A stretch of 19,959 nt of DNA from a virus. Below the pieces are notes generated by a model that was given only the letters and a program-made list of their open reading frames with translations, had not been told where the DNA came from and did not search any database. Both the position numbers and the translations under genes were made by a program. Location: the UHGV virus genome UHGV-1722906. One strand, written 5' to 3'. Of the stretch, positions 1 to 15,820 are shown in pieces. The number at the start of each line of letters is the position of its first letter. Within the stretch, counting starts at the first letter, position 1.

Positions 1-306
1 GATAACAACTTTATCACCTGCCATTGCAATAATGGTTGCAGCCGATGCAGCAATACCATCAATATAAACTGTAATATTAGCCTTATGACGTTTTAATGAA
101 GAAAGAATAGCTTGAGCTGTAAAAACAGAACCACCATAACTATTAATTTTTACGTTGATAGCATTTGATGAAATATCCTTTAATTTATTAACTATGTCAG
201 AAGAAGAAACCTCATCAAATTCACCAATATACCCGTATATTAAAAGCTCAGCCGGAGTGTCATCTTCACCCGTGCTATTTTTTATTTCCCACCAATTAGG
301 CATCAT
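1..306 (-). CDS. Prohead maturation protease, ClpP/S49-like (partial; gene runs past the window start)
   Basis: Minus-strand frame open from ATGATG at 306-301 to the window edge, not in the ORF track because it has no stop. My translation reads MMPNWWEIKNSTGEDDTPAELLIYGYIGEF...INSYGGSVFTAQAILSSL...VYIDGIAASAATIIAMAGDK, which resembles the ClpP/S49 INSPGG and active-site serine regions. It overlaps the portal stop, as head genes typically do. Confidence 0.7.
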   Translation of the reverse strand, partial: MMPNWWEIKNSTGEDDTPAELLIYGYIGEFDEVSSSDIVNKLKDISSNAINVKINSYGGSVFTAQAILSSLKRHKANITVYIDGIAASAATIIAMAGDKVVI

Positions 307-1870
307 CAGTCTCCATATTTTGTTCATTTACCTCAGAAACAGGAGGATTAATAAGCCCCAACTCACGGCGAGCATTCTCTTCTCTGCCACAAATTTGTGC
401 GGTTTCTTCCCAGTTAAGACCTGACATTTCAGCCGCTTCCTTTTCACGGGTAGAGAATGTTTCCTCAACACGCAGTTTTGCAGCTTTGACTTCTTTAAGG
501 GGATCTAATTGGCCTTGTGATGGGCCATACCATTGAGCGCCACTCCATGCAGCGCGATATTCAGGCCCATAAAAAAAACCAGGGGCAATAACACGACCTT
601 TAGCCACGGCTTCGGCCAACCATTCCTCATAGATCGGTTGGCAAAATGACTGAACCATCCAGTCACGTCGCATACGGAACATTTTCCAGGCTTCAAGTAA
701 TGCGGCCCTGCTTGCGCTATAACTTGCTGTAAAATGCTTTACCAAGAGTTCGTAAGGGAGTTCTAAAGCAGCCCCAATTTGACGGCATATGGCGACAACA
801 AAACCATCAAATGCCGTATTTGGTCGCCCGGGATTTGCTGTATCTATCGACTCACCTTCACCCAAACTTACTATGGAGCCATTCCCCATTTCTTGGGTGT
901 TATCATCATGGTTATCGATCTGCTCGTACTGAGGGATACCCGATTCACCGACTGGTCCATCAGGAGCGTCTGTTTTAATAAAGACAGTAAACATCCCTGA
1001 CACAACCGCAGCAACCAATTCAGCATCGGTGTATCGTCCTAACTGCTTCAATGCTTCAATTACAGGAGCAAGGACAGGAACGCCACGGCGTTGCCCAGGC
1101 CTTTCAAAATCCTGCATGACATGCAGAATATTTCTTCTTCCTGTTTTACTCCCATATGCGGGAATACGTTCCCACTTGCGGGTTACAAAACCAGAAGTCC
1201 CGGCTGGGTGATGTTTTGCAACCCAGTACGCCACAGGCTCGCTAAATTCACCAACCTCTACGCCACCGTAAAGATTTGGTATAAAACGATCCTCTGGATT
1301 GCAAACACGATCACCTTCAATTAAATAGACGCACAAATCATATATAACACCCTTACGCTTAATAACTGGTAGCGCAGCAAATATATCGCCAGATGTTAAC
1401 GCAGATATTTGGACCAATGATTGCAATTGTCCAAAAGTACACATTCTTGATGCATCACAATTTGGAGAATCAGCCCATAATCTAAACTCACGCTCAACAT
1501 GCTTTTCCCATGCTCGCGCTTCTTCCTGCGTCATCCCCAAGAAATCGGCATCAATGTTCGCATTTAGTTTTAAACCGGAACCAACAACGTTTGTCCTGAT
1601 AGTTTTTATTGCGCCAACCGATAGCGGGTTTCCCATGAAGAGATCACGAGAACGCTCACGCAATTTATCTATATTTTTAACAATATCATCATCAGGAGAA
1701 CCAGCTTTACTAAACCAACCCCTTAATGATTTTTTATGAGTGCTTGCACCATGACGTGAATATCCAAGGTTATTAATACCTTCAAGTGCCTCTAACCGTT
1801 TTCTTGCCAAAGCTCGATTTAATGCCCTCTGAGGTGAAAACGGCGCAATAACTCGATCAAGAATATTCAT
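296..1870 (-). CDS. Phage portal protein (lambda gpB family)
   Basis: 524-aa ORF. Segments such as SYSASRAALLEAWKMFRMRR and EEWLAEAVAKGRV resemble lambda gpB as I recall it. Position between the gpW-like gene and the protease matches lambda head-gene order. Confidence 0.9.
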   Translation of the reverse strand: MNILDRVIAPFSPQRALNRALARKRLEALEGINNLGYSRHGASTHKKSLRGWFSKAGSPDDDIVKNIDKLRERSRDLFMGNPLSVGAIKTIRTNVVGSGLKLNANIDADFLGMTQEEARAWEKHVEREFRLWADSPNCDASRMCTFGQLQSLVQISALTSGDIFAALPVIKRKGVIYDLCVYLIEGDRVCNPEDRFIPNLYGGVEVGEFSEPVAYWVAKHHPAGTSGFVTRKWERIPAYGSKTGRRNILHVMQDFERPGQRRGVPVLAPVIEALKQLGRYTDAELVAAVVSGMFTVFIKTDAPDGPVGESGIPQYEQIDNHDDNTQEMGNGSIVSLGEGESIDTANPGRPNTAFDGFVVAICRQIGAALELPYELLVKHFTASYSASRAALLEAWKMFRMRRDWMVQSFCQPIYEEWLAEAVAKGRVIAPGFFYGPEYRAAWSGAQWYGPSQGQLDPLKEVKAAKLRVEETFSTREKEAAEMSGLNWEETAQICGREENARRELGLINPPVSEVNEQNMETDDA

Positions 1871-2106
1871 AAATCTCTTATCACCACTCGTTTAATTCGT
1901 GGGCCTCGGCGTATACCTGCTGATAATCTTTCTACTTCATTACGCCAGTAATCCATCTCTTTTCTGACTTCTGATAAATCCGCACGAGTTAACTGCCGCG
2001 TACCAAATTTATATGACTGACCGCCAATAGCAATAGCGCGATATGCTTCCCGCCAGACAGATAACATCTCTCTGGCTTCAGTCAGAGAAAATGCTTCATT
2101 GCTCAT
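1867..2106 (-). CDS. Head-tail joining / head completion protein (lambda gpW-like)
   Basis: 79-aa ORF between terminase large subunit and portal, 4-nt overlap with the portal start. Size and position as lambda W. Confidence 0.6.
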   Translation of the reverse strand: MSNEAFSLTEAREMLSVWREAYRAIAIGGQSYKFGTRQLTRADLSEVRKEMDYWRNEVERLSAGIRRGPRIKRVVIRDL

Positions 2107-2117
2107 TTATATTTCCT

Positions 2118-3974
2118 CTATATGGTTACGCCTTTACTTATAACTCTACGGCGTCTTCTACGTATACCTGACGAGTTCTGCACATACACATTACCTCGCA
2201 TTTCCTGTTCAGCAAGCCAGTCAAAATTAGGGTTCAGAATTTCCATCGCGGCAGTTGCATAGTTACGGCAATCAAGAGGCTCGTTACGCTCGTAGACTTT
2301 CACCCACTTTTCTTTTGTCTGCCCATTTTTATATTCAAATATTTTTTTCTCTGATAATAGCCCTTTAAAATAATCAGTATCATATCCTCTGTCAGAATCT
2401 AATGGAAAATGCATATAACCAGGACCAGGATCATGTAGCTTAATTCGTGCCATGATGGTCCCTTTACCATCATCAACCCCCAAATTAAACAACATAGCAC
2501 CTACACGGTTATTATTGCTTGGCTTTCCTATAAACGGTAAACCTACCCCACCACGACCTCTGATAGAGTATATTCGCCTTGATTCTCGCGGCTTAGTAAA
2601 GCGATATACCTCTGTCGTAAAATGCCCACCAGAGTCAATACAAACGGAAGAAATCTGTAATTTTCGACCGTCACGAAATGACCAGCTACGGAGTAAGTAT
2701 TCATCAAGTTGTTTCCAGACAACATCTTGTGCGGGATCGCCCGGAAATATTTTATATTCAATCCCCCATGATTCCTTACCTTTTCCCCAACCGACCAATT
2801 CACAAACTAAATACGTGTCCTGTACGTCAACACCAGCACTTAACAATAAAACATCATCTGGTAAAAACTCTTCAAACCTTATTCTGCGTTGCAACAAGTA
2901 TTCAGGATCGATATCGTCTTTAGCATCCTCTTTCCATGGCTCACCCAGCTTAAGGTTAATAAACTCCATTAATCCATTTTTATCGCGGTTTCTGGTTGCT
3001 TCCGTAAATTCTTCAACCAGCTCTGACAATGCAACCCACGGGGAGTAAAGACTGTTAATATGAAAACCAACAATACCTTTAACTCCAGTATGTTCAGCTA
3101 TCCATACCCCCTTCGCCAACCAATCAACGTCTGGTTTACCAGATCCGCGCATAATCCCGCCGCACTCACAGCACTCATATCTGGCCGTTTCCGGTAACGC
3201 CTCACCTGAATCGCTCTTATCCCATCTGACTTGCGACCATTTCATCACCTGCATGGTGCCACAACATGGGCAAGGAACATGGTAGTAACGCTGATCGGAG
3301 AGCTTAAACCACTTGTGGATTTTGCTCGTTTCCTCCAAAACAGGAGTAGAAACAAAAACTTTCTTACGATTATGAAAGTTGGTAGTACGCTGAATACCTA
3401 GTTTTAGTGGGTCGCCCTCCTGCGTCACACCGTAACGATCAATCTCATCAGCTAACAATATTCGAATTGGCCTGGATGCAAGACCTGCTGGGGAATTAGC
3501 ACCAACAAGTGCTATATATCCACCAGCGTAATGTTTCATACGTATAGTCGTGCTGGACTTTTTGGCTGCACCGCGCCCCTCTTTCCCTTCATGCAGCTTG
3601 TGTTTCAAACCAGGGGAATATTTGAACGTCGGATCAATACGCTCTTTTGAAAAAGCCTCAGCCGCCTCTACCGTTGGATAAATCATCAACTGAGGAGATG
3701 GCTCCTGATCTGCAAAGTAACCCATAACATTTAGCTGTAATTCGGATTTACCAATTTGCGAGCTACATTGCATCACTACTGTTTCTGTATCAGCGTCACC
3801 AATAACATCCATTGGTTCACGCAAATATGGCACTCGGCTTGTACGCCACGGCCCTGGCTCTGGAGACGTTCCCGGCGCTACATGACGATACTTATCAGCC
3901 CATTCGGAAACAGTTAGCCGTGATTTAGGGCGAAGCGCACGGAAAAAAGCGGTGCTCCATACTGTTTCGCCCAT
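2118..3974 (-). CDS. Terminase large subunit (lambda gpA-like)
   Basis: 618-aa ORF with a cysteine cluster HVPCPCCG...CCECGG like the lambda gpA ACPHCG region. Lies between the small terminase and gpW-like genes. Confidence 0.9.
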   Translation of the reverse strand: MGETVWSTAFFRALRPKSRLTVSEWADKYRHVAPGTSPEPGPWRTSRVPYLREPMDVIGDADTETVVMQCSSQIGKSELQLNVMGYFADQEPSPQLMIYPTVEAAEAFSKERIDPTFKYSPGLKHKLHEGKEGRGAAKKSSTTIRMKHYAGGYIALVGANSPAGLASRPIRILLADEIDRYGVTQEGDPLKLGIQRTTNFHNRKKVFVSTPVLEETSKIHKWFKLSDQRYYHVPCPCCGTMQVMKWSQVRWDKSDSGEALPETARYECCECGGIMRGSGKPDVDWLAKGVWIAEHTGVKGIVGFHINSLYSPWVALSELVEEFTEATRNRDKNGLMEFINLKLGEPWKEDAKDDIDPEYLLQRRIRFEEFLPDDVLLLSAGVDVQDTYLVCELVGWGKGKESWGIEYKIFPGDPAQDVVWKQLDEYLLRSWSFRDGRKLQISSVCIDSGGHFTTEVYRFTKPRESRRIYSIRGRGGVGLPFIGKPSNNNRVGAMLFNLGVDDGKGTIMARIKLHDPGPGYMHFPLDSDRGYDTDYFKGLLSEKKIFEYKNGQTKEKWVKVYERNEPLDCRNYATAAMEILNPNFDWLAEQEMRGNVYVQNSSGIRRRRRRVISKGVTI

Positions 3975-3979
3975 GAGGT

Positions 3980-4532
3980 TTATTCTTCCTGCTTAATAAA
4001 TCGGGATTCCTGGAGCGCCTGAAGCGCAAAATTAATCTCGTCTTCAATAATGCGTTCGATCTCCCTGGCTGTTTTGCCTTCACAACGGGGAGCTGCTCTT
4101 GGAGCAATACTAAATAAGCGGCTACGCAATTCATTAGCTGCCAGAAATGCATCATCCCTGACCGCATCTTTAGCGATGAGAGAGCCTTCCTTTTCTTCAA
4201 ATTCAAGGCGTTTCAGCTTTGCCTGATAAATTTTTTCTGCGGTCTTAGCCTTGTTGAATTGCACCGCAACACCGGAAGTACCACCAGCTAATCCGGCATC
4301 ATCAGCGGGTAACTCTGGTTGTTCCGAAGATATCCCATGCCCTCTTTTTCCGTTTTCAGCAGATACCTCACGACCAACCTGTCGGCTCGCTTCATAAGCC
4401 GCACTAGCTTTATCAAAATCCAGCTTGCCGCTTTTCAGCACTGGAATGCGACCGGAACGACAGAGCTTCGTAACCATTGCCGGAGAAATACCTTTCCGGC
4501 GGGCAAACTCTGACTTACTGACGATGGCCATT
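3980..4532 (-). CDS. Terminase small subunit with N-terminal HTH
   Basis: Track ORF 3980..4540 begins with TTG. The ATG at about 4532 (MAIVSKSEFARRKGISPAMV...) overlaps the stop of the upstream ParB-like gene as TAATG, so it is the more likely start. N-terminal helix-turn-helix and a charged coiled C-terminal half are typical of Nu1-type small terminases. Confidence 0.7.
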
Positions 4533-5121
4533 ACTTGCAACCATTAGCAAGATACTGAACAAATCCCTCATGAGTTTCATGCGCGTCGTGGTACTGACGA
4601 TAAACATCCAGCAACAATGCAATTTCCATATCCGTCGCGGGAATACGTTCTTTATCAATAGCCAGGTACTTAATTTGAACAACAGGGGAAGAATTATCGT
4701 CTTCTTCCTGCGGCTGTTCATCGCTTAACATTTCGTCAAGCTCTGCATCATTAAACCCAAGCAGATCAATATCAAAATCATCATCCATTAACGCTTTGAC
4801 TTCTTCGGCCAGAAGCTGCATATCCCAGCCAGCATTTAAGGCCAGCTTGTTATCTGCAATCCTGTAAGCCTTCTTCTGTTTTTCAGAAAGGTTACTCAAC
4901 CGAATCGCTGGAACTTTATCCATTTCCAGAATTTCGGCTGCTGCAAGCCGCCCATGCCCCGCAATCAGTTCATTCTTTTCATCGATCAGCACAGGATTAG
5001 TGAAACCGAACTCACGGATACTGTTCACCAACTGTTCAACTTGCTCATCTGAATGAGTCCGTGAATTTTTGGCGTATCTGAGCAGCTTACCGACTGGTAA
5101 ATATTCGATTTTTAGAGCCAT
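4531..5121 (-). CDS. ParB-like nuclease domain (ParB/Srx fold) protein
   Basis: 196-aa ORF with motif LIDEKNELIAGHGRLAAA, matching the GxxR box of ParB N-terminal domains. Stop overlaps the terS start. Confidence 0.75.
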   Translation of the reverse strand: MALKIEYLPVGKLLRYAKNSRTHSDEQVEQLVNSIREFGFTNPVLIDEKNELIAGHGRLAAAEILEMDKVPAIRLSNLSEKQKKAYRIADNKLALNAGWDMQLLAEEVKALMDDDFDIDLLGFNDAELDEMLSDEQPQEEDDNSSPVVQIKYLAIDKERIPATDMEIALLLDVYRQYHDAHETHEGFVQYLANGCK

Positions 5122-5678
5122 TTTTTAACCGCCATAACACAACAGGTTAAAGAAAACTGTTTAACTTATTGATACTAAAAGAGAAAAATGACGATCTTTT
5201 TACTCATAAAAAATCACACAAACCAGCATAATCATCTGATTTTATTAAGTTTTTATAAGTAAAAAGGATCTTGATATGGTGTTTTGGTTAAAAGATTGGA
5301 TGTATTTGCATGATTTATAACGATTTTTATCAAAACAGCCTTACATTAGTTAAAGATCTGCGCGTATCTTGATGATCTAAAAGAAAATTTTCTACTTTCT
5401 TTTTACCATCGCAAGCACAGCAAAAAATCACGTTTTCCCAATATTTTTCAATGAGATGAGTAAATTTCTTTTACCGCAACTTTTAACCTAACTTTTTTCA
5501 CGTTTAGCTAGCCGAACATCGGGGTTCGAATGACCCGCATCCAACGCTTTTGGCCAGAAGGACCCAATTCTGCCGGACGATGAAACGATGCTCGTGCTCC
5601 CCCACAGACAGCCAGCGAGCGACGCTACAGAACACAGTGAATACACTCTGCATAACAACACCATCAACCACACGATGA
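5122..5678. promoter_or_regulatory. Long non-coding spacer: AT-rich promoter-like part (about 5130-5480, four GATC sites) plus a GC-rich part (about 5500-5678)
   Basis: No credible ORF; the two track ORFs here are short and Cys/Leu-rich. Sits upstream of the ParB-like/terS/terL operon on the minus strand. Confidence 0.35.
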
Positions 5679-6398
5679 TTAACGAGAGAAGGTCTTAGAA
5701 AGAATGTCATCAATAGCCTTTGTGACTTCATCAGCAAACGCATCCTCACCAGCACGCAGCGCCACGCCATGCCAATCAAGACGCTGCGAATAGTTAGGTT
5801 GCTGGATAAACGTAAGGATCAACGTAGGACGCCGCCCAACGCGCTGCCAGACACCTGGTTGAAGCGGGTTACTTGTACCAGGTCGAACAACAAAAAACTC
5901 CGTAGGCTTGCCCTGACGGCGATTTTGATGCGCATCTCGCTGAACTCTTAGGCCAGATAAGACCTGCTGTAATTGCCCCCGCGAAATATTCCCGTATTTG
6001 TCCAGCTTTGCGCCGGGACCAGGAGCAAGCTGCCAGCCGTTAGGCAAATATCCACCAGCCCTTAGCGCCCCTTCTGAGCGTTTGTACTGTCGTTGGCCAC
6101 CTTCGATTTGCGGAGTCAACGTTACAGGGGCTGGCGTTCCTCCCCATTCACGAGCATACACAATGGCTGTAGGATCACTCTTCTTTGCGGCCAAAACGTA
6201 AGTAGAGTTCTGAATCCACGGCGTGGGCCTGTCAAATACCCGATTAATTTCATTCTTAATCGCAGCCTGAGAAGCCTTTGCCGTTCTGGTTGCCGCAAGC
6301 GCCATTGCGAACGGCAATTCGCGTTCTTCAAGGCGCTGGAGTTGTCGTTGAATATCCTGAGAAGAAAAATCCATCTTTATCTCAATTCTGTCAGCCAC
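5679..6398 (-). CDS. Hypothetical protein (239 aa), function unknown
   Basis: Long ORF on the same strand as its neighbours, between the two ParB-domain genes. No motif I recognise. Confidence 0.55.
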   Translation of the reverse strand: MADRIEIKMDFSSQDIQRQLQRLEERELPFAMALAATRTAKASQAAIKNEINRVFDRPTPWIQNSTYVLAAKKSDPTAIVYAREWGGTPAPVTLTPQIEGGQRQYKRSEGALRAGGYLPNGWQLAPGPGAKLDKYGNISRGQLQQVLSGLRVQRDAHQNRRQGKPTEFFVVRPGTSNPLQPGVWQRVGRRPTLILTFIQQPNYSQRLDWHGVALRAGEDAFADEVTKAIDDILSKTFSR

Positions 6399-6414
6399 CA
6401 GCGCCTCCTACACA

Positions 6415-7794
6415 CTACTTAATCAACGGCCGGAAAGCCGCCAGCACATCATCAGATCGTCCGATTGTTGAACCACCAGGCAACGGCAACTCAAACTCAA
6501 AACGAACAGCTTTCTCCAGACTCGCCCAACTAAGGGAATCATCGTTAATGACGTGCAAATACCAGCTCTTACAGTTGAATATTGACCGCTTAATCCTGAA
6601 ACCATGTACACGACACAACTGCTTCACTTCATCATCAGAGTGAAACTTCTGGTAAAACCAGTGCCCCTTCCGGTACAACGCGGTAAAACCGTTATGATCA
6701 ATAAAATAAAGCCGGCTTTTGGAACTCGCCGCTTGTGTTTGCTTCAGGACTGTTTCCAGCTCTCCACGGCTACGACCAGAAAAGAATATTGACCCACCAG
6801 CTTTACACAGGCCTTTTAGAACCGTCAGAACGGACCATTCAGCCTCGACACTATCGACCGAGTTCAAAACGCTATCGCAAATCACGTAGTCGTAACGCCC
6901 TCGCGTTTTTAAGTCGTCCACCAGCGTATCAATCATCCGGTTTGTTGCGGCCCTATCCAGAGTGTTTCCAGCGCCCTTACGGCGGAAAAGCTCGAGATCA
7001 TGCAGGTTATATCCCTTTGCCCTGAGCATTCGCGCGTAGTCTCCCTGCCCCGAACCAAAATCAATTCCTCTTGGCGTCTTGGCAATGATCGGGAGGATCA
7101 ACGACTCATACAGGTTTGATTTCAGGCTGCCACCATTACGCAACCGCATAAGCTGCGCATACGTCTGGATGTATGTTGTTTTCTCCAGATGAGAATACTC
7201 AAATACACCATAAGTTTTATTCAGATAACTTTGGTATTTTTCCTTCTCAACATCAGGGATCACAAACACCGTTAGCGGTGTGCGCGTCATCTTCGCTGCT
7301 AATGCATACTGAGCACAGTGAATAACCTCGCCAGACTGAGTAGCAACACAACCACCCCACGGACCATACTTGATAACCAGTTCCGCTATGTTCTTTCGAA
7401 CATATGCCATTTTCGCGCGCATATTGCCTGAGATCTGGCTTGCCGATACCTGAACAAAACCATGCTTATCTTCCAGACCGGACACCCTGCAACGCTCATC
7501 TCCGCTATCAAAATCCGTTCCGTTATGCAGTTGGTTAAACCGTACTTCGTCGTATACCGTCGTTTCACAGGGCAACACATACACCGCAGCACGCGTTATT
7601 CCCAACTTACGTAGCGCCTTCGTCCTTTGGTGTCCCGCCACCAGCAAATCGCCGCGCACTATCAATGGCTTCACAAGCCCCAGCTCCCTGACGCTTTCCG
7701 CCAGCCTCGCAAGATCATCCTCACCGATAAAACGCGGGTTATATTCCGCGCCACGTAGGTGCGTTATGTCGTAATTGAGGTGAAGCATCAGCAC
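6415..7794 (-). CDS. ParB-like N-terminal domain fused to a class I SAM-dependent methyltransferase
   Basis: 459-aa ORF. N-terminus has LLVAGHQRTKALRKLG (ParB/Srx box). Centre has GIDFGSGQGDYARML, a glycine-rich SAM-binding motif I. I could find no DPPY/NPPY or PCQ motif, so the substrate is uncertain. Overlaps the upstream ParB gene by 7 nt. Confidence 0.75.
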   Translation of the reverse strand: MLMLHLNYDITHLRGAEYNPRFIGEDDLARLAESVRELGLVKPLIVRGDLLVAGHQRTKALRKLGITRAAVYVLPCETTVYDEVRFNQLHNGTDFDSGDERCRVSGLEDKHGFVQVSASQISGNMRAKMAYVRKNIAELVIKYGPWGGCVATQSGEVIHCAQYALAAKMTRTPLTVFVIPDVEKEKYQSYLNKTYGVFEYSHLEKTTYIQTYAQLMRLRNGGSLKSNLYESLILPIIAKTPRGIDFGSGQGDYARMLRAKGYNLHDLELFRRKGAGNTLDRAATNRMIDTLVDDLKTRGRYDYVICDSVLNSVDSVEAEWSVLTVLKGLCKAGGSIFFSGRSRGELETVLKQTQAASSKSRLYFIDHNGFTALYRKGHWFYQKFHSDDEVKQLCRVHGFRIKRSIFNCKSWYLHVINDDSLSWASLEKAVRFEFELPLPGGSTIGRSDDVLAAFRPLIK

Positions 7795-8411
7795 ACCTCC
7801 CCAGCCAGCAATGCGGATACAAATCCGATATAGCTGCCATTATCATCAACATAACGAGACACCGCGCAGTCAAAACGATCCGCTTCCTCATCCGTTGCCG
7901 GGATTTTATGACCTCCAAATGACAGGTACTGAACTTTTACGCCTGATTTGGCCTCATCCTTCTCAAATGGGATATCCATACCCTCTGTGTCATCGTAGAC
8001 CGCCGCACTCAATAAGTTATCCAGTTCGCGCTGAGTAAAACCAATTGAGTCCAGAGCAAAATCATCGGCCGCAAGATCTGCAAGCTCCGCGCTTAACAAC
8101 TCTTCATCCCAACCAGCATTCAGCGGAATACGGTTGTCGGCCAGACGATATGCCTTCTTCTGATTCTCCGTTAGCCCAGCCAGAACAATGCAGGGAACAT
8201 CATCCATCCCCAACTGAGTGGCCGCAGCAATTCGACCATGACCAGCAATTACAACGTTGTTCTCGTCTATCAGGATCGGATTAGTCCATCCGTACTCCTG
8301 TATGCTGGCAACAATCTGATCTACCTGCTCCACGGAGTGTGTGCGAGCGTTCTTTTCATAACCAATCAACACAGAAAGTGGTAAAGAAACCACATTAAGA
8401 TGTTTTGTCAT
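7788..8411 (-). CDS. ParB-like nuclease domain protein (paralog of 4531..5121)
   Basis: 207-aa ORF with motif LIDENNVVIAGHGRIAAA. Colinear with the 196-aa protein through shared blocks such as KNxRTHSxEQV, TENQKKAYRxADN and LNAGWD. Confidence 0.75.
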   Translation of the reverse strand: MTKHLNVVSLPLSVLIGYEKNARTHSVEQVDQIVASIQEYGWTNPILIDENNVVIAGHGRIAAATQLGMDDVPCIVLAGLTENQKKAYRLADNRIPLNAGWDEELLSAELADLAADDFALDSIGFTQRELDNLLSAAVYDDTEGMDIPFEKDEAKSGVKVQYLSFGGHKIPATDEEADRFDCAVSRYVDDNGSYIGFVSALLAGEVC

Positions 8412-8645
8412 GCCGTTTATCCGCTAAAATCCCCTCGCTTGTGCAAGCAAGTGGGCCTCGGTTTGTATCCACGGCACCCTGTGGGTATGAATGACTGTCG
8501 TCAGGTCGCAACTGACGGCGGTCGCCCACCTTCCAGTAATAAAAAAGCCACCAGCATTAACTCCACAGCGAGCTGGAGTTAATGAGGCAGCTTTGGTTTG
8601 CGCATTATCGCAGCCCCTGATAAGCACAAGAGCTGCTGTAATGCG

Positions 8646-9056
8646 TTACGCAGGGATCAAACGGAGGCAGCCGTTATTTACCTCAATACGAGAGTATTCC
8701 GGCTTACCATCAACGATTCCGGTAATGACAAGTTCGCCATCAGACGAGCATTCTTCTTTGTCGTCTTCAAGTACCGCGCCTTCTGGCAAATCAACACAGG
8801 CAAAAACAGGGCAGCCAGGATAACGATCATCTTCCATCGCAATCAGCATCGACTCACCGAACCACTCTGTGGTAGCACGGCCATCAGCCGCCTGATAGTG
8901 AATCAGATACTGGTTTTCGCCATTTGCATACTGAGCACGGGCTTGAACTTCTCCCCATTCGTCACTGATACGCATTGTTACCAGTTGGGATAATTCAAAC
9001 TTAAACGGAACAGACTCTGCACCAATGGCAATCGGTTTATCTTCTTTCTTTTCCAT
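8646..9056 (-). CDS. Strongly acidic hypothetical protein (136 aa)
   Basis: Track ORF is 8646..9125, but the ATG at 9056 is preceded by AGGTGA and lies just downstream of a terminator, so I take 9056 as the start. About 27 Asp+Glu against about 12 Lys+Arg. Confidence 0.5.
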   Translation of the reverse strand: MEKKEDKPIAIGAESVPFKFELSQLVTMRISDEWGEVQARAQYANGENQYLIHYQAADGRATTEWFGESMLIAMEDDRYPGCPVFACVDLPEGAVLEDDKEECSSDGELVITGIVDGKPEYSRIEVNNGCLRLIPA

Positions 9057-9068
9057 AACATCACCTGA

Positions 9069-9096
9069 AAATAAAAAGCCCCGCGACACCGCGAGG
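9069..9096 (-). terminator. Rho-independent terminator (GC hairpin plus U-run on the minus strand)
   Basis: Minus-strand RNA reads CCUCGCG-GUGU-CGCGGGG followed by CUUUUUAUUUU, about 10 nt after the stop of the 54-aa ORF. Confidence 0.6.
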
Positions 9097-9105
9097 CTGT
9101 AAGAG

Positions 9106-9270
9106 TTACTTTCGATAGAAATCAAGGCGCATTTGCTCCCGCTTAAGCCGAAAAGCTCTCTGCGCCACTAAGATGCGCCACAGGACACCAGCAATAACCA
9201 CCAGCGAGATACAAAAACACACGGCCACAACCATCAGAAAAATGCCAACACCATTCATGAAACTATCCAT
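9106..9270 (-). CDS. Small predicted membrane protein (about 54 aa)
   Basis: Below the ORF-track size cutoff. My translation is MDSFMNGVGIFLMVVAVCFCISLVVIAGVLWRILVAQRAFRLKREQMRLDFYRK: one hydrophobic helix then a basic tail. Followed by a terminator. Weak ribosome-binding site. Confidence 0.35.
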   Translation of the reverse strand: MDSFMNGVGIFLMVVAVCFCISLVVIAGVLWRILVAQRAFRLKREQMRLDFYRK

Positions 9271-9461
9271 TCTTCAATGAATATCTCCAGTAATGTCAAG
9301 AGATACGCCGTCCCCAGCGCGGTTCCTACCGATATAGCTAAGACAAACCTCAAAGATAACGAGGTGTCTTTCGCTTTTCTCCAGACGTAAGCGCCAGCCA
9401 GAAATACCAACAAATCTCTTATTGGAAGCGGAAACCAGAACAAATCACTCGGCAAGTCCAC
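9255..9461 (-). CDS. Small predicted membrane protein (68 aa)
   Basis: GTG start 2 nt after the upstream stop, preceded by GGAAGGA. Two hydrophobic segments (LLVFLAGAYVW, FVLAISVGTALGTAYLLTLL). Confidence 0.5.
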   Translation of the reverse strand: MDLPSDLFWFPLPIRDLLVFLAGAYVWRKAKDTSLSLRFVLAISVGTALGTAYLLTLLEIFIEEWIVS

Positions 9462-9463
9462 GG

Positions 9464-9919
9464 TTATATCCTTCCATTCATTTTTATCGGATGACCAGAT
9501 AGCCTTACGCAGTTGAGCTGTAAAGCTCCGGTATCAACTAAATAATCAACTAACATGATTAGAGATTCATATTCAGCCAGATAGCTAACCTGACGCATTC
9601 GACCGCCGTTGTTCTCCAGAATGTCGGCCACCTTTGCAGCCAACTCGCTTAGACAGGAGAACTTATTCCCATATATCGTTTTATACTCGCGCTTCTGGCA
9701 TTCTTCGGCTTGCGGCTGGTTATCGAGAGCTATCAGCGACCGATAACTATCAAGGAAGTCCACAATCTCATTCAGGCACTCTTTGGCTGCCTCATCGTGA
9801 CTTTTTCCGTATGCTTCATGGAGGACTTTCATCCTCATCATTGCTCCGTCACACATAATCGAAAGCGCGTAAAGCACATCACTAATCGCCATTTCTTTTT
9901 TGGTGCTTGTCGAAGGCAT
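9464..9919 (-). CDS. Hypothetical protein (151 aa), function unknown
   Basis: ATG preceded by AAGGAG at good spacing. First gene of a three-gene operon with the two small membrane proteins. Confidence 0.6.
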   Translation of the reverse strand: MPSTSTKKEMAISDVLYALSIMCDGAMMRMKVLHEAYGKSHDEAAKECLNEIVDFLDSYRSLIALDNQPQAEECQKREYKTIYGNKFSCLSELAAKVADILENNGGRMRQVSYLAEYESLIMLVDYLVDTGALQLNCVRLSGHPIKMNGRI

Positions 9920-9944
9920 CCCATGTTCTCCTTTGTCTGGATGT

Positions 9945-9970
9945 AAAAAAGCCCCGGCAATTGCCGAGGC
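9945..9970 (-). terminator. Rho-independent terminator on the minus strand
   Basis: Minus-strand RNA GCCUCGGCAA/UUGCCGGGGC hairpin followed by UUUUUU, just downstream of the 66-aa ORF stop. Confidence 0.5.
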
Positions 9971-9993
9971 TCGTTGTTCGTTATCGTTACGGT

Positions 9994-10194
9994 TTAATGC
10001 TCGCGTCGTCCGGCGACAACTTCGGATTTGTATTTCAGGTCGCCCAGCAAGAATTGCAGTTTAAGCATCTTTGCCGCCGTGTAGTTCCCTGATTCCACAA
10101 CCTCTTTCATGAGGTCATAAACGGCCGCTACATCATCAGCCAGGAACTCTTTGCGTTGCTGCTCAGTCGCACGTTTGAAGGAAATACGCATCAC
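9994..10194 (-). CDS. Hypothetical small protein (66 aa)
   Basis: 4-nt overlap with the upstream 89-aa ORF, terminator immediately downstream. Confidence 0.4.
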   Translation of the reverse strand: MMRISFKRATEQQRKEFLADDVAAVYDLMKEVVESGNYTAAKMLKLQFLLGDLKYKSEVVAGRREH

Positions 10195-10460
10195 TCATCA
10201 TCTCCTGCCGCACATACAACCTCACAAAAAACATCAGCGGAATGTTTCTCCTTGAACGAATGACGCTCAAAACCGCACTCAATATCAGGCGCAAAAACAT
10301 CCACCACATACGGTCTTTCAGAATGTTGGTTTTCCCAACGATAAACCGTAGTGACGTTGAAATGTTTTAACGCTTCACGGAACTCAACGCTGCCCGTCAG
10401 GTTTTTTGAGGTCAGGTATTGCAGGAGGTTTTTTACTACTTCACGGTCTTGTACTTTCAT
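10191..10460 (-). CDS. Hypothetical protein (89 aa)
   Basis: ORF downstream of an AT-rich promoter-like stretch (about 10540-10580), overlapping the next ORF by 4 nt. Confidence 0.5.
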   Translation of the reverse strand: MKVQDREVVKNLLQYLTSKNLTGSVEFREALKHFNVTTVYRWENQHSERPYVVDVFAPDIECGFERHSFKEKHSADVFCEVVCAAGDDE

Positions 10461-10581
10461 CGGGTTATCTCCGGTTTAACCAGGGCGGGTATCGCTCGGT
10501 TTCGGGTATAACCTTAGGAAATTTTTTCCCACCTGTAAAGCATTTTTTATATAAATATATAATTATATAATTCTATGAGCA

Positions 10582-10608
10582 CAAAAAAGCCCCTTTGCAA
10601 CAGGGGCT
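10582..10608 (-). terminator. Rho-independent terminator of the higBA operon
   Basis: Hairpin AGCCCCT-GTTGCAA-AGGGGCT followed by UUUUUU on the minus strand, 16 nt after the higA stop. Confidence 0.6.
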
Positions 10609-10623
10609 TATCATTCGTTCTGA

Positions 10624-10923
10624 TCAGATGTTAAACGCTATTCGTTTTCCTGTGGGAAGCTCAACATCCAGGCTTAATTTGCCTCCCATAGCTTCAACGT
10701 AACGCTTTAATGTCGCCAGCTTTAAATCATTTCCGCGCTGCTCCAGCTTTGTTACTGCTGGCTGGCTTATACCCATCGCCTCAGCAACCTGTTTTTGTGA
10801 TAACTGGAGTTCTTCACGCATCATCTGCAAGCCGACCTCAAGAATCATCTCATCTGCCATTTCTTTAATTCGCGCCTGGCTTTCAGGTGAACGGCTGGCA
10901 ATCACCTCATCTAATGTTCTCAT
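10624..10923 (-). CDS. higA: HigA-type antitoxin (XRE-family HTH)
   Basis: 99-aa ORF with HTH segment LSQKQVAEAMGISQPAVTKLEQ. Lies downstream of, and overlapping by 1 nt, a RelE/ParE-like toxin gene; toxin-first order is the HigBA pattern. Confidence 0.8.
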   Translation of the reverse strand: MRTLDEVIASRSPESQARIKEMADEMILEVGLQMMREELQLSQKQVAEAMGISQPAVTKLEQRGNDLKLATLKRYVEAMGGKLSLDVELPTGKRIAFNI

Positions 10924-11276
10924 TACTTGCTCTCCAGTGTGTTCAGATGTGCTGCAAACTCATCCTCAGCTATACGCACCAGTTTTTCATAAAACCGTTT
11001 ATCGTTACTTTTGTCTCCTGCACAAAGAACGATGGCCCGGCGAATCGGATCGAACGCATAAAAGGCTCTTATCGGACGGCCAGAAAACTGAACGCGAAGC
11101 TCTTTCATATTTTTGTACCGAGAACCTTTTACGGTATCGGCATATGGCCTGGGTAACTCAGGTCCGTAAACCTGTAGCTTTTTCAAATCAGCCAAAACCT
11201 TTTCCTGAAGAGCGTCTTCTTGCTCATTTAGCCAGTCGTCAAATCGCTGGCTAAAAAGTACCGTCCACATGCTCAA
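10923..11276 (-). CDS. higB: HigB-type toxin (RelE/ParE superfamily, addiction-module killer protein)
   Basis: 117-aa ORF (MSMWTVLFSQRFDDWL...LRVQFSGRPIRAFYAF...) resembling the HigB/Gp49-like killer family, encoded upstream of its antitoxin. Confidence 0.75.
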   Translation of the reverse strand: MSMWTVLFSQRFDDWLNEQEDALQEKVLADLKKLQVYGPELPRPYADTVKGSRYKNMKELRVQFSGRPIRAFYAFDPIRRAIVLCAGDKSNDKRFYEKLVRIAEDEFAAHLNTLESK

Positions 11277-11330: not shown

Positions 11331-11514
11331 AAGAAAAACGGGGCTATTTAACATAATGGACGTTATCGGCACCACCGGATCACCGTTCATTGTCGGATCT
11401 AAAAAATCCGCTCAAAAGATCATGTTTTCCTGGGCGTTTTCCACCGTTTTTTATGTTGCTTATTTGTTAATGAAATCTCGTTTTCAGTTTCGCCTCATTT
11501 TCGACGCGAAAGCC

Positions 11515-12479: not shown

Positions 12480-12731
12480 GCGTAAGTTAAATAAAGAAAG
12501 TTTTAATAAAAGAAAGTGATTTTGCATTTATTTGTTTAGTGCATCTATTATAAAAAACCATTTGCATATACATATCAAAACTGTGGATAACTTGATTAGT
12601 TGATACCTGTAAAGGCGATATTTTTGCTGAGTTCAGGTTTAGAGAAAATTAATTTAGCTTGTTTTTTGAACAGCTATTTTTTTGCGACGTAGATAATCCT
12701 CCGGTAAAACCGGATTCATCATTCAGGTGAG
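12480..12731. other. Candidate plasmid origin (IncFII oriR-like): AT-rich region plus a consensus DnaA box
   Basis: TGTGGATAA (reverse complement of TTATCCACA) at 12582-12590, about 145 bp downstream of the repA stop, next to an AT-rich stretch at 12480-12580. This matches the known repA-then-ori layout of IncFII replicons. Confidence 0.55.
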
Positions 12732-13580
12732 TTAATGTTGGAGTGATTTCCAGGTCTTTCTTAGCCTGTTATAACGCTGCTCAACGAGGGATCGTAAATA
12801 TGCAAGGTCAGCACCAGGATACATGCCATCAGCAAATTCCTGGCTAACCTCTCTAGTGATTTGATGACGAAGTTCGGCCTCTCCCTTTTCCTGAACAAGA
12901 CGCGCAGCTCTCTCCGCTGCTTTCTGTTTTGCCTTTATCTCTCTGGCCGTCTTCCTCTGACGCCATACATTCTCCATCTGCTCCTGAATAACAATACGCT
13001 TATAATCAGCCTCCGTTATCGCTTTTTTAAGCCGTTCGCTATTCTTCGCATTGAAGTAATTAAGTTTCTGGCTAACCGCACGTCTCCATGCTTGTTCAGT
13101 AATACCAACGGTTTCCAGCAGTTGATCACGAATCTCTATTTTCGCTGGCCAATACTGTTTATTCACCCGATCCCAGCGACGTTCATAATCAATAAAACCT
13201 AACGCTTTCAGTTGCGACAACGCCCTTGTACAGCGCGTTATAGACTTGTTCCCAGCTTCGGATACGGTAGACAGGCCGCAAAAATCAGCCAACGCCTCAG
13301 CACTAGCCAGAACCCGCTTAGAAATGATGTTTACATGGTGCAAAATCGCAGCGATCACAGCATTAATCGCCCGACGACGATGCTCGTTTATCCGGCGCTT
13401 CCGCTCTGACGGTTGATTAACGTAGAACGCAACCTCACACGTAAGATCACGCCCATTAATGCGCTGTAAAGCATCAGATAACACCAGCGGCAGCTTGTGC
13501 GTATGGTGCTTTGGAGGCTGGAACTCCGGCGACAAATTACAAACGTAAGCTGAACGTAGAGACGGCATTGGTCTATCCAT
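12732..13580 (-). CDS. repA: Plasmid replication initiator RepA (IncFII RepA1 family)
   Basis: From the ATG at 13580 (MDRPMPSLRS...) the protein is 283 aa and aligns by eye with R100/R1 RepA1 as I recall it, with RRRAINAVIAAI at the same residue positions as RRRAIDALLQGL and SITRCTRALSQLKALGFIDY against SITRATRALTFLSELGLITY. The track ORF extends to 13709, but those 43 extra codons overlie a terminator hairpin and are probably leader, not protein. Confidence 0.85.
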   Translation of the reverse strand: MDRPMPSLRSAYVCNLSPEFQPPKHHTHKLPLVLSDALQRINGRDLTCEVAFYVNQPSERKRRINEHRRRAINAVIAAILHHVNIISKRVLASAEALADFCGLSTVSEAGNKSITRCTRALSQLKALGFIDYERRWDRVNKQYWPAKIEIRDQLLETVGITEQAWRRAVSQKLNYFNAKNSERLKKAITEADYKRIVIQEQMENVWRQRKTAREIKAKQKAAERAARLVQEKGEAELRHQITREVSQEFADGMYPGADLAYLRSLVEQRYNRLRKTWKSLQH

Positions 13581-13589
13581 ATGTTCGCT

Positions 13590-13702
13590 CTTGCGTCCAC
13601 GGAAAACCAACGTATAATGGGAGTTGTCGAGGCGCCCATGGTTAATTGTTGGTTTTCCGTGGATGTCGCAAGAAGCCCGCAGATTTATCTGCGGGCTTTT
13701 TG
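13590..13702 (+). ncRNA. Candidate CopA-like antisense (countertranscript) RNA over the repA leader
   Basis: Plus-strand promoter-like TTGCGT-16-TATAAT (about 13591-13618), a long imperfect inverted repeat (13598-13615 with 13646-13663), and a perfect terminator hairpin AGCCCGCAG-ATTTA-CTGCGGGCT plus TTTTT (13674-13702). It is antisense to the repA 5' region and nothing on the plus strand is coding here. Confidence 0.4.
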
Positions 13703-13890
13703 TTTCCATATCTGGTCACTTTCCAACCAGACACCCACAATCATAACCACGTTACGTGGTTTTAAGAGAACTCTACCACAACACTTTCGGTCATGCACGA
13801 AGTCTCTCACTGATCGAACGATAATCCACCAGTAAAAGGATCTAAATTGGATCTCGTTTTGCGAGCATCATACTACTGGCCTAACTCCAG

Positions 13891-14445
13891 TCAATGATTC
13901 CCAGCCGGAAACCTGCGGTAAAGCGTGGATAAGGTAACATCGAAGATAATCGCTATCCGCTTACGTGAAACACCATTCGCAATAAGCCTTCCGATCTGTT
14001 CCCATTGCTCTGGTGCCAGCTTTGAGCGACGTCCTCCTATCCTGCCGTTAGCCCTTGCCACCGCCAATCCTGCACGCGTTCTTTCAATCATATTTTCCCG
14101 CTCCATCTCTGCGACTGCACTCAGCATCGTGTAGGCAAAGCGGCCAATTGAAGTGCTAATTTTTATCCCTTCCGTAATCGAAATAAACTCAATGTTGTTT
14201 GATAAAAAATGGTTAAGTAAATCAACAAGATGAATCAGAGAACGCCCCATTCGGTCCAGCTTCCAGACAATAACCGTATCGCCCGGCCGTAGCACCTTAA
14301 GTAGCTTATCAAGCCCTGGCCGTTTTGATTTAGCACCGGATATTTTATCTTCAAAAATCCGGTCACATCCTGAACTCCTGAGCGCCTCCAGTTGTAATTC
14401 CAAATTCTGGTCAAAAGTTGACACCCTCGCATAACCATATTGCAT
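13891..14445 (-). CDS. pin: DNA invertase, serine recombinase of the Pin/Gin/Hin/Cin family
   Basis: 184-aa ORF with N-terminal catalytic motif GYARVSTFDQ and a C-terminal HTH (IAIIFDVTLSTLYRRFP) like the Hin/Pin DNA-binding domain. Sits next to inverted tail-fibre cassettes. Confidence 0.9.
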   Translation of the reverse strand: MQYGYARVSTFDQNLELQLEALRSSGCDRIFEDKISGAKSKRPGLDKLLKVLRPGDTVIVWKLDRMGRSLIHLVDLLNHFLSNNIEFISITEGIKISTSIGRFAYTMLSAVAEMERENMIERTRAGLAVARANGRIGGRRSKLAPEQWEQIGRLIANGVSRKRIAIIFDVTLSTLYRRFPAGNH

Positions 14446-14510
14446 ACTTTCTAAACCGCGATTGTTGCTAAAAGCGGGAAAAAATATCGTTCAGACGACA
14501 CAGAGGCAAT

Positions 14511-14536
14511 TCGCAAAAACCTCGGTTTGCAGGAAA
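14511..14536. other. gix/pix-like 26-bp site A (extra site between pin and the functional left site)
   Basis: Reverse complement reads TTCCTGCAAACC-GA-GGTTTTTGCGAA. Its left half and inner flank are identical to the right site and the start of the expressed variable segment. Core is 49 bp from site B, so out of frame with it. Confidence 0.5.
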
Positions 14537-14558
14537 CGGTAAATCAGGCTTGCCGCCG

Positions 14559-14584
14559 TTATCGAATACCTCGGTTTACGAGAA
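14559..14584. other. Left crossover site B at the start of the silent Sv' cassette
   Basis: Reverse complement reads TTCTCGTAAACC-GA-GGTATTCGATAA; the outer half and about 21 bp of flank (encoding AAVIEY) are identical to the constant side of site R. Confidence 0.65.
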
Positions 14585-15280: not shown

Positions 15281-15282
15281 TT

Positions 15283-15816: not shown

Positions 15817-15820
15817 GAGA

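Follow-up and report, generated by a model that had tools for sequence, protein, structure and literature searches.

A probable lambda-like cos site with a different 12-base cohesive end in a phage-plasmid of E. coli

The spacer and its neighbouring genes

The gene-free spacer described here occupies positions 5122-5678 of the window, that is, of the whole stretch of 19,959 nucleotides that was analysed. It is bordered by the stop of a minus-strand gene for 239 amino acids (5679-6398) and by the start of a ParB-like gene. The initial annotation had placed the spacer upstream of a packaging operon, and downstream of it the minus strand indeed carries the ParB-like gene, a terminase small subunit (TerS), a gpA-type terminase large subunit (TerL), and a lambda-type portal. 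The ParB-like gene (4531-5121, minus strand) encodes 196 amino acids with a ParB/Srx N-terminal domain (Pfam ParB_N, E 4e-08; phrog_620, E 1e-74). This is the only ParB domain found in the protein, and no helix-turn-helix was detected. Two more ParB_N genes are located just upstream of the proposed cos site, and the ParB-like protein turns up in 1829 blocks of the assembly collection. A literature search for ParB-like nucleases in packaging returned nothing on topic.

TerS consists of 183 amino acids, counted from the ATG at 4531 (3980-4531, minus strand; phrog_57, E 7e-42). It shows no significant similarity to the lambda small subunit gpNu1 in BLASTP (E 0.4), and a sequence search of the PDB likewise gave no significant similarity. 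Profile alignment with hhalign pairs TerS residues 4-36 with residues 3-34 of Nu1, the winged helix-turn-helix, at E 0.002 and a probability of only 14%. Residues 1-50 of a single-sequence model of TerS reach a pLDDT of ~87; the best local Foldseek matches of this N-terminus are the winged helices of Xis, RacA and BldC, all non-significant at E >0.5. TerL (2118-3974, minus strand) belongs to the gpA family (GpA_ATPase, E 7e-76; GpA_nuclease, E 2e-84), shares 28% identity with lambda gpA across 599 amino acids (E 2e-62), and is presumed to be the nicking enzyme.

The ~48-kb element to which the spacer belongs is a myovirus with a lambda-type head and packaging module. The spacer is present in 72 of 5426 complete genomes, and 71 of the 72 E. 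coli matches lie on plasmids; the 48.5-kb plasmid of E. coli ATCC 25922 is one of the carriers. The SSU5 and pSLy3 phage-plasmid groups of Pfeifer 2021 were considered and are different elements. An IncFII-type repA is found at 12732-13709, 7 kb from the spacer, with a perfect DnaA box at 12582.

That the spacer is non-coding, as first annotated, is borne out. It carries no gene calls in phage record ON470591.1, in RefSeq plasmids or in 10 assemblies, and its minus-strand open reading frames at 5488-5673 (61 amino acids) and 5504-5779 (91 amino acids) have no PHROG match. Indels of 16, 3, 1 and 16 nt separate it from Salmonella relatives. One RefSeq record (H49) has a hypothetical protein annotated under the GC block. 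The GC content is 28.3% at 5122-5499, 53.6% at 5500-5678 and 44.8% in the whole window. The ~180-bp block that had been called GC-rich therefore deserves the name only relative to its AT-rich neighbour, and not in absolute terms. In a 50-kb relative, no other 300 bp are as AT-rich as this segment. A tRNA or attachment-site remnant was also considered, as the core TTCGAA resembles a T-loop; ARAGORN finds nothing.

Putative cohesive-end and cosQ-like sequences

The records of three Yersinia phages, which match the spacer at 97% identity, have been opened into linear form at one or other of two positions separated by exactly 12 nt. The records of vB_YpM_39 and vB_YpM_41 begin at window position 5535 with GGTCATTCGAAC, while that of vB_YpM_44 starts 12 nt later at CCCGATG and ends with GGTCATTCGAAC. 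These ends are start points of database records annotated as circular, and their 12-nt offset is the pattern expected if a cohesive end stays at either end of an assembly. They point to a cosN at 5524-5535 on the minus strand, with a 12-nt cohesive end 5'-GGTCATTCGAAC-3' and putative nicks at 5536|5535 (minus strand) and 5523|5524 (plus strand). The 5' polarity of the overhang is assigned by analogy with lambda and N15. Among 16 distinct E. coli-type sequences, GGTCATTCGAAC is invariant. All IMG/VR matches and all assemblies with the ParB-like gene continue through the site, and no contig ends there. In the literature, a search for GGTCATTCGAAC retrieved only an unrelated yeast paper, no paper naming the Yersinia phages was found, and a preprint naming vB_EcoM-613R2 does not discuss cos.

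Upstream of the candidate cosN, the heptamer GGGTCCT (5559-5565, minus strand) starts 30 nt before the top-strand nick. It occurs once in the window and once on the same strand in a 50-kb relative. Sequence comparison places GGGTCCT also 30 nt before the nick in lambda and N15, and 29-30 nt from the nick in ~30 relatives, including the diverged lineage L017/L032 and two Vibrio phages. In lambda we take this heptamer to be cosQ, an identification that reportedly goes back to Wieczorek and Feiss in 2001; its role here would be the same. A literature search combining 'cosQ' with 'GGGTCCT' gave unrelated papers only. Feiss et al. 2015 (PMC4669245) describe strong conservation of a 7-bp cosQ across the lambda-like phages. 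The heptamer and its 30-nt spacing persist here despite 28% TerL identity and a near-wholly different cohesive end, an indication that, of all parts of the lambda-type cos, cosQ recognition has been conserved most deeply.

The block TTGGGTCCTTCTGGCCAAAAGCGTTGGATGCG (5536-5567, minus strand) joins the cosQ-like heptamer to cosN and aligns among E. coli, Salmonella and IMG/VR relatives. It ends in CG just before the nick, as in lambda; CG adjoining the nicks is conserved (Feiss et al. 2015, PMC4669245). On the other side, between cosN and the first copy of a repeated motif, an I2-like segment (5489-5523, minus strand) contains a conserved TCGnCTAGCT and an A-tract, and is kept in four enterobacterial lineages and the Vibrio phages. 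In lambda, I2 is AT-rich and covers bp 18-50 (PMC4856287).

Conservation is concentrated around this core. Numbered from the nick, positions -60 to +76 contain only three variable sites (-19, -18 and +19) among 16 distinct E. coli-type spacers. The stretch from +77 to +262 is densely variable, and few SNPs are seen from +263 to +414. The core block is also conserved in comparison with Salmonella relatives, whose identity across the 1.9-kb query (4531-6398) is 72%. By contrast, the linker that leads from the stop codon of the 239-aa gene to cosQ (5566-5678, minus strand; ~52% GC) is variable, has low identity to Salmonella, and is swapped for unrelated, more AT-rich sequence in L017/L032. A TerL-based search of genome contigs for distant relatives yielded three loci with 57-58% identity; the sole one with enough upstream sequence (L056) has neither GGGTCCT nor the AT-rich spacer.

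Taken with the gene order, these features make it very probable that the spacer is the cos site of a ~48-kb E. coli phage-plasmid, with lambda-type organisation on the minus strand. Terminase recognition by cos or pac had been one of the options first put forward; it finds support as cos, not as pac. The putative core (5559-5565 and 5524-5535) lies at the start of the so-called GC-rich block, away from the GATC cluster behind that suggestion.

Repeat array, GATC cluster and alternative readings

Downstream of the nick, nine copies of a GGT(A/T)AAAAG motif are spread over ~400 bp, in both orientations and with irregular spacing. The copies at +48 (GGTTAAAAG, 5488-5480) and +61 (GGTAAAAGA, 5475-5467), both on the minus strand, do not vary in E. 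coli-type sequences. Together (5467-5488) they occupy the position equivalent to R3 of cosB, given that R3 lies near bp 49-65, where we place it from our own reading of the lambda sequence. The copy at +129 (GGTAAAAAG, 5399-5407, minus strand) keeps its position (+130) in Salmonella-type relatives and L017/L032. Inverted copies follow on the plus strand at +182 (GTTAAAGA, 5349-5358), fused to the GATC at 5355-5358, and at +243 (GGTTAAAAG, 5286-5294); the latter is also found in L017/L032 and Salmonella-type relatives. Two opposed copies of AGTAAAAAG, at +271 (5258-5266, plus strand) and +333 (5204-5196, minus strand), are fused to the GATCs at 5267 and 5193, respectively. They form the outer ends of an imperfect 31-nt inverted repeat (5196-5226 / 5236-5266, within 5193-5270), a region with few SNPs among E. 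coli-type spacers. The inverted copy at +385 (GGTTAAAGA, 5145-5153, plus strand) reads TTTAACC, TTTTACC or GTTAACC in all lineages, and the last one at +406 (GGTTAAAAA, 5122-5130, minus strand) overlaps the ribosome-binding region of the ParB-like gene. In L017/L032, GTTAAC is present at +49, +62, +130, +182 and +243, matching motif positions here.

Six matches to GGT[AT]AAAAG with at most one mismatch are counted against 0.47 expected, and five to GT[AT]AAAAG against 0.12. None of 1000 simulations attained either number, although these P-values are inflated because the motif was defined after viewing the sequence. All five GT[AT]AAAAG copies (5/5) of a 50-kb relative fall in the spacer. As judged from sequence, repeats at such conserved positions fit a cosB-like array, and TerS is the presumed reader of the motif. 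Unlike in lambda, the array is ~400 bp long and a ParB-like gene precedes terS, and part of it may therefore serve another purpose. An IHF-like match with one mismatch (AATCAGATGATTA, 5241-5229) is located between the +271 and +333 copies, and a perfect match (TATCAATAAGTTA) to the IHF consensus WATCAANNNNTTR at 5162-5174 on the minus strand. The three IHF-like matches in the region are not above chance (P 0.22), so the perfect match is only a candidate. In the alignment of 17 distinct E. coli-type spacers, a 90-bp segment (5308-5397) holding the GATCs at 5355 and 5374 and the +182 motif is missing from vB_YpM_44, in whose record the ParB-like gene starts at 313, not 415. This segment is apparently dispensable.

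The initial annotation had drawn attention to four GATC sites in the spacer. Three of its positions are correct (5267, 5355 and 5374), and the fourth is off by one, at 5193 instead of 5194. The local excess it noted is real and modest: in the 379-bp AT-rich segment, four sites stand against ~0.8 expected (0.7-0.95; P(>=4) ~0.006). Across the window, 62 GATCs are observed against 66 expected. When 62 sites are placed at random, a cluster of four in 185 bp arises in 60% of trials, and an equally tight cluster exists at 13812-13993; the spacer cluster is thus not unusual at window scale. Three of the four sites abut motif copies as a 3' extension, GT(A/T)AAA(A)GATC, and the cluster looks mostly like a by-product of a repeated protein-binding motif. 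The number of sites varies from 0 to 4 between lineages. Most E. coli- and Salmonella-type relatives retain those at 5193 and 5267, which are absent in L017/L032, and the Vibrio phages have no GATC from the record start to the ParB-like start codon. Distances of 159-340 bp separate the four sites from the nick, and their contexts are AGATCA, AGATCT, AGATCC and AGATCG. In phage P1, pac is a terminase recognition region with several GATCs and Dam-regulated cleavage; P1 uses a headful PacA/PacB terminase, and GATC hexamers flank its cut site. A P1-type pac does not agree with the gpA-type terminase and the fixed ends 12 nt apart, and unlike the P1 pac hexamers none of the spacer GATCs is TGATCA or TGATCG.

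We considered other functions for the spacer. It is unlikely that the ParB-like-terS-terL genes are driven from the AT-rich segment (5122-5500) by a late promoter, or controlled by an operator, that responds to Dam or SeqA, with the operator at 5193-5270. Such an element would make use of the local GATC excess, of the inverted repeat with its two retained flanking GATCs, of the low SNP density from +263 to +414, and of the position just upstream of the operon's first gene. Yet no sigma-70-like promoter was found, either on both strands with a prediction tool or on the gene strand with a relaxed scan, and no P2-type TGT-N12-ACA element either. No terminator follows the upstream same-strand gene, so read-through across cos, as in lambda, would suffice. 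Moreover, the Vibrio relatives have only ~140 bp from cosN to the ParB-like gene, without such an element. Motif extension accounts for three of the four GATCs, whose number drops to zero in some relatives, and two are deleted in vB_YpM_44. The Dam-sensitive promoter first proposed is thus not supported; an activator-dependent promoter in the spacer is conceivable. Improbable, too, is a role of the array as a parS-like loading site bound by the adjacent ParB/Srx protein, with or without TerS, for packaging or plasmid maintenance. The ParB-like gene does lie between array and terS in every lineage examined, including L032 and the Vibrio phages, the array reaches its ribosome-binding site, and further ParB_N genes are close by. 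Its protein, however, lacks a detectable helix-turn-helix, a ParA gene is found elsewhere on a near-identical plasmid, and the +48/+61 copies coincide with the lambda TerS site R3. The ParB-like C-terminus of L032 is E. coli-like, yet its motif is GTTAAC as in Vibrio; protein and motif therefore show no obvious co-variation. Motif type was also set against the recognition helix of TerS and the C-terminus of the ParB-like protein; the four lineages covered are too few to tell which of the two binds.

Two further readings concern replication and expression of a small product. A plasmid replication origin of the oriC or P1 oriR type in the AT-rich GATC segment might be expected from its extreme AT content, from several GATCs alongside repeated short motifs, and from the maintenance of the element as a plasmid. 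We regard it as very improbable: the spacer contains no DnaA-box-like sequence with at most one mismatch, the IncFII-type repA has its own DnaA box 7 kb away, the motifs are irregularly spaced in both orientations, and the same architecture recurs in records of lytic-type linear Vibrio phages. Hardly credible is a small RNA or small protein encoded by the 54% GC block (5500-5678), in spite of the two minus-strand open reading frames overlapping it and the hypothetical protein of H49. No Rfam match reached the gathering score, the single chance-level hit (E 0.9) being in the AT-rich part; the fold z-scores are -0.90 and -0.95 for the two strands; and neither promoter nor terminator was found. 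The block is poorly conserved with indels that are not multiples of three, and the 61-aa frame, like the longer one without a PHROG match, would be split at cosN. The small RNA locus among the original suggestions is accordingly not supported.

Packaging model and comparison with known phages

Under the cos reading, and by analogy with lambda, the small terminase subunit would bind the GGT(A/T)AAAAG motifs downstream of the nick, with the invariant +48/+61 copies as probable key binding sites and host bending proteins possibly assisting. The motif-bound small subunit would then position the gpA-type large subunit on cosN, where nicks 12 nt apart would generate the 5'-GGTCATTCGAAC cohesive ends (5535-5524). 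Packaging would run toward lower window coordinates, so that the terminase genes enter first, and would halt at the next cos, with GGGTCCT (5565-5559) supporting the terminating cut.

The lambda cos has the same order and polarity as proposed here (cosQ, cosN, cosB, terS, terL). It shares the identical GGGTCCT starting 30 nt before the top-strand nick, the 12-nt stagger inferred here, the CG right before the nick, an AT-rich segment after cosN, and an R3 that by our own placement falls near the first repeat copy at ~+48. Both systems have a gpA-family TerL, though at the low identity given above. The lambda end GGGCGGCGACCT agrees with GGTCATTCGAAC at 3/12 bases (positions 1, 2 and 4), and the overhang is followed by CG in lambda and by CC here. 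The TerS proteins show no significant similarity. Nine short repeats over ~400 bp contrast with three 16-bp R sites within 120 bp in lambda, where cosB abuts Nu1; here the ParB-like gene separates the array from terS. With GGTCATTCGAAC matching lambda at so few positions, the element falls outside the 'lambda-like cohesive ends' group as defined by Feiss et al. 2015 (PMC4669245). By its sequence, it would work like the lambda cos without being a member of that narrow group: a lambda-like cos with a different 12-base sticky end.

N15 offers a second comparison, as its GGGTCCT also stands at 30 nt, its record annotates a 12-nt 5' extension, and its prophage is a plasmid. The N15 cohesive end differs from that of lambda at 2/12 positions, and its TerL shares 65% identity with gpA (PMC4669245); the element described here is far more distant from lambda. 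The cosB of N15 is simple, consisting of only R3 and rR2 (PMC4669245), in contrast to the extended array here. Its prophage is a linear plasmid, whereas the present element is circular in records and carries an IncFII-type RepA.

A cos upstream of the terminase genes is in its expected place, and the feature is ordinary in kind. Its assignment would fix the genome ends, the direction of packaging and a natural place at which to begin the coordinates of a phage-plasmid family frequent in E. coli. A minimal fragment of ~5440-5600 should make any plasmid packageable by these phages, which bears on plasmid transduction in clinical E. coli. It is a quite doubtful proposition that the ParB/Srx protein acts as a third component of the cos module that loads on the array, with the motif-fused GATCs conferring a response to Dam. 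Such a component of ParB/Srx type could be one that is so far undescribed. If true, packaging initiation or operon expression would be Dam-responsive, linking packaging to replication of the plasmid prophage; P1 pac offers an earlier example of packaging tied to Dam methylation.

The closest sequenced phages outside the family are Vibrio phages phi 2 (KJ545483.2) and vB_VpaM_R19R (PP839371.1), whose TerL is 62-65% identical; they lend the cos reading independent support. In both, GGGTCCT lies 29-30 nt before CG|GG, and the overhang begins with GGT, as here. They also share CCCCG, TCGTCTAGCT, the A-tract and the repeats, followed by the ParB-like gene, terS and terL. Their cohesive-end sequence is GGTGCTCGCG(A), as opposed to GGTCATTCGAAC, and their repeats are five direct GTTAACAC copies in ~140 bp, compared to the nine of mixed orientation here. 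The linear records of the two Vibrio phages stop 10-11 nt beyond the homologous CG|GG.

The spacer at 5122-5678 and its probable cos core

Two minus-strand genes flank the spacer (5122-5678): a ParB-like gene (4531-5121), whose start codon adjoins it, and a gene encoding 239 amino acids (5679-6398), whose stop codon adjoins it on the other side. Genes in this part of the window are almost all on that strand. Downstream, also on the minus strand, lie the genes for the small terminase subunit (TerS; phrog_57, E 7e-42), the large terminase subunit (TerL; gpA family), a DUF6148 protein and a lambda-type portal, in agreement with the packaging operon proposed in the initial annotation. No gene is called inside the spacer in the phage record, RefSeq plasmids or ten assemblies, its two small minus-strand ORFs are without a PHROG match, and its alignment with Salmonella relatives has indels of 16, 3, 1 and 16 nt. 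The spacer is therefore non-coding, as first described. The 180 bp described as GC-rich do exceed the window in GC content, but at just 53.6% against 44.8%.

The spacer is very probably the cos site of a phage-plasmid family, with its core at 5524-5565, inside the part called GC-rich. The heptamer GGGTCCT, which we take to be the cosQ reported by Wieczorek and Feiss 2001, is present in a single copy in the whole window and once per strand in a 50-kb relative. In the genome ends of lambda and N15, fetched for comparison, the distance from its first base to the top-strand nick is exactly 30 nt, and ...CG|GG comes after it. The window carries GGGTCCTT at 5565-5558, with ...GCG|GG after it, and its start precedes the inferred nick by exactly 30 nt; the distance is identical to that in both phages, and the CG directly before the nick is shared with lambda. 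A highly conserved 7-bp cosQ is needed for termination, and CG is conserved next to the nicks (Feiss et al. 2015, PMC4669245). In contrast to these likenesses, just 3 of the 12 cohesive-end positions agree with lambda, the overhang is followed by CC instead of CG, and identity between TerL and gpA is just 28%. The persistence of heptamer and spacing despite this TerL divergence and an unrelated cohesive end may interest specialists. A cos site is a well-known kind of element, so the novelty is limited to one more member.

The deposited genome ends converge on the same place. The records of Yersinia phages vB_YpM_39 and vB_YpM_41 start with GGTCATTCGAACCCCGATG and end with ...GTTGGATGCG, while that of vB_YpM_44 starts with CCCGATG and ends with ...GATGCGGGTCATTCGAAC. 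Each of the three assemblies is thus cut open at one or other of two points spaced by exactly 12 nt, which flank GGTCATTCGAAC (window 5535-5524, minus strand). This pattern would be expected from a 12-nt cohesive end trimmed from either side of the assembly; the evidence is strong but indirect, because the records are labelled circular. Outside the family, the nearest phages are the Vibrio phages phi 2 and vB_VpaM_R19R (TerL 62-65% identical), whose linear records break 10-11 nt past the homologous ...GAGCG|GGTGCTCGCG(A). As in the window family, GGGTCCT lies 29-30 nt before the ...GAGCG| point, which is followed by CCCCG, TCGTCTAGCT and an A-tract, then by five GTTAACAC repeats, a ParB-like gene, terS and terL. 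Two independent record sets, Yersinia and Vibrio, therefore put genome ends at one homologous site.

Conservation among relatives

A search of IMG/VR with the exact 15-mer returned 41 loci. In about 30 of them, and in the plasmid and phage loci that were fetched, the 15-mer is closely preceded by GGGTCCT; these were taken as relatives, and the remainder look like chance matches. The relatives fall into four lineages, namely an E. coli type, two Salmonella types and a diverged pair of loci (L017 and L032). Throughout, GGGTCCT stands 29-30 nt before the 12-mer, and the following CCC, a (T)CGCTAG/TCGnCTAG block and AAAAGTTAGGTTAA are kept, as is the 12-mer, whose retention is built in since it was part of the search pattern. 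Among 16 distinct E. coli-type spacers, the interval from -60 to +76 (counted from the first base of the cohesive end) varies at three sites only (-19, -18 and +19). Variable sites crowd the interval +77 to +262 and thin out once more between +263 and +414. Variation is moderate in the 54% GC segment that separates the heptamer from the 239-aa gene; we treat this segment as a linker, and in L017 and L032 unrelated, more AT-rich sequence takes its place.

Repeat array, GATC sites and alternative readings

Downstream of the cohesive end, nine GGT(A/T)AAAAG-like copies start near +48, +61, +129, +182, +243, +271, +333, +385 and +406, five oriented with the packaging direction and four inverted. 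There are five GT[AT]AAAAG copies where 0.12 are expected, and six of GGT[AT]AAAAG with at most one mismatch where 0.47 are expected (each count reached in 0 of 1000 simulations), figures that overstate significance since the motif was picked after inspecting the sequence. Independent support comes from the 50-kb relative, where all five GT[AT]AAAAG copies lie inside the spacer and none elsewhere, and from L017 and L032, where the repeated word is GTTAAC, at +49, +62, +130, +182 and +243. The cosB specificity of lambda versus phage 21 likewise combines fixed positions with lineage-specific sequence (PMC4669245). The first array copy lies near lambda R3, which we place at about bp 49-65 by reading the lambda sequence. 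The N-terminus of TerS is confidently modelled as a strand-helix-helix-strand unit (pLDDT ~87). This unit aligns weakly to the gpNu1 winged helix-turn-helix and is similar to Xis, RacA and BldC domains, with no match reaching statistical significance. We assign a cosB-like function to the array with moderate confidence, and the role of its reader to TerS with less. The array is unusually long and may interest specialists, as may the ParB-like gene that always sits between array and terS.

A ParB/Srx N-terminal domain is found in three minus-strand genes around cos (4531-5121, 6415-7794 and 7788-8411), the middle one (459 aa) carrying a fused Methyltransf_23 domain. The position between array and terS is likewise occupied by such a gene in L032 and in both Vibrio phages.

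The initial annotation had suggested that the spacer could be a Dam-sensitive late promoter, a cos or pac region, or a small RNA locus, pointing to four clustered GATC sites. Three of these are correctly placed (5267, 5355, 5374) and the fourth lies at 5193, not 5194. The cluster exceeds local expectation at 28% GC (4 versus ~0.7-0.95, P(>=4) ~0.006), but is unremarkable at window scale: the window is not enriched (62 observed versus 66 expected), an equally tight cluster arises in 60% of random placements, and a second of equal tightness lies at 13812-13993. Three of the four sites follow on directly from a motif copy (GTTAAAGATC at 5349-5358, GTAAAAAGGATC at 5259-5270 and GTAAAAAGATC at 5203-5193, minus strand), the latter two being the outermost parts of an imperfect inverted repeat of 31 nt. 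Between the cohesive end and the ParB-like gene, relatives hold 0 to 4 GATCs, the one at +266 being most often kept and others occurring at +18 and +58 in other lineages. Sites 5355 and 5374 appear dispensable, because vB_YpM_44, deposited as a complete genome (host Yersinia pestis), has a deletion of 90 bp (window 5308-5397) when compared with the window and the sister phages, and both sites and one motif copy go with it. This variable count, and the lack of promoter-like or terminator-like sites in 4900-5900, speak against a Dam-sensitive promoter; a relaxed promoter scan of the gene strand and a search for P2-type activator sites likewise found nothing. Transcription probably reads through cos from upstream genes, as in lambda. 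A small RNA is disfavoured by the absence of an Rfam match and by RNA stability that is not unusual. The cos option is the one borne out, although its support does not come from the GATC cluster.

A replication origin was rejected, as the spacer holds no DnaA box; the sole perfect box in the window (TTATCCACA, 12582-12590, minus strand) lies about 140 bp downstream of repA and probably marks the plasmid origin. A partition site is also less likely, a ParA gene lying far off on a related plasmid.

Elsewhere, three GATCs in 42 bp (13812, 13839 and 13850; 13812-13853) fall between the start of the IncFII-type repA (13709, minus strand) and a recombinase gene (13891-14445), a tighter cluster than the flagged one and a more plausible place for Dam control. 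Three more occupy 44 bp (11378-11421) upstream of a minus-strand toxin-antitoxin pair (Gp49-like toxin, 10923-11276; HTH antitoxin, 10624-10923). The near-identical plasmid NZ_CP098182.1 encodes an MT-A70-family methyltransferase (28687-29274) in a part of the plasmid that the window does not include; this enzyme would become relevant if methylation of GATC played a role at the spacer.

The element and its distribution

Of 5426 complete E. coli genomes, 72 carry the spacer at 96-99.6% identity, 71 of the 72 copies being on plasmids of ~47-52 kb; it is also present in Escherichia phage vB_EcoM-613R2 and the three Yersinia phages. The window encodes an IncFII-type RepA (12732-13709), a Hin-type recombinase adjoining opposed tail-fibre assembly genes, and the toxin-antitoxin pair; a contractile tail, lysis genes and ParA are encoded on the near-identical plasmid. 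Together, these features mark the element as a phage-plasmid whose head and packaging module are of lambda type.

Window 1-10195 is collinear with NZ_CP098182.1, after which ~16 kb of the plasmid (13.1-29.4 kb), holding regulatory and early genes, ParA and lysis genes, is skipped. The jump (window 10195-10582) falls at a ~120-146 bp repeat present in three copies in the plasmid, and the window may be a deleted derivative or a collapsed assembly. In one locus (L059; CP117606.1), the cos and ParB-like region is instead carried on a 4.69-Mb E. coli chromosome, with a 46-aa ORF replacing the ParB-methyltransferase gene at its usual place; the copy may have integrated there or undergone rearrangement. 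The recombinase, of the resolvase/invertase family, adjoins a tail-fibre C-terminal fragment (14867-15280, plus strand), followed by two opposed tail-fibre assembly genes (15283-15816, plus; 15845-16372, minus), and the layout of 13891-16372 looks like a Gin/Cin-type invertible host-range segment.
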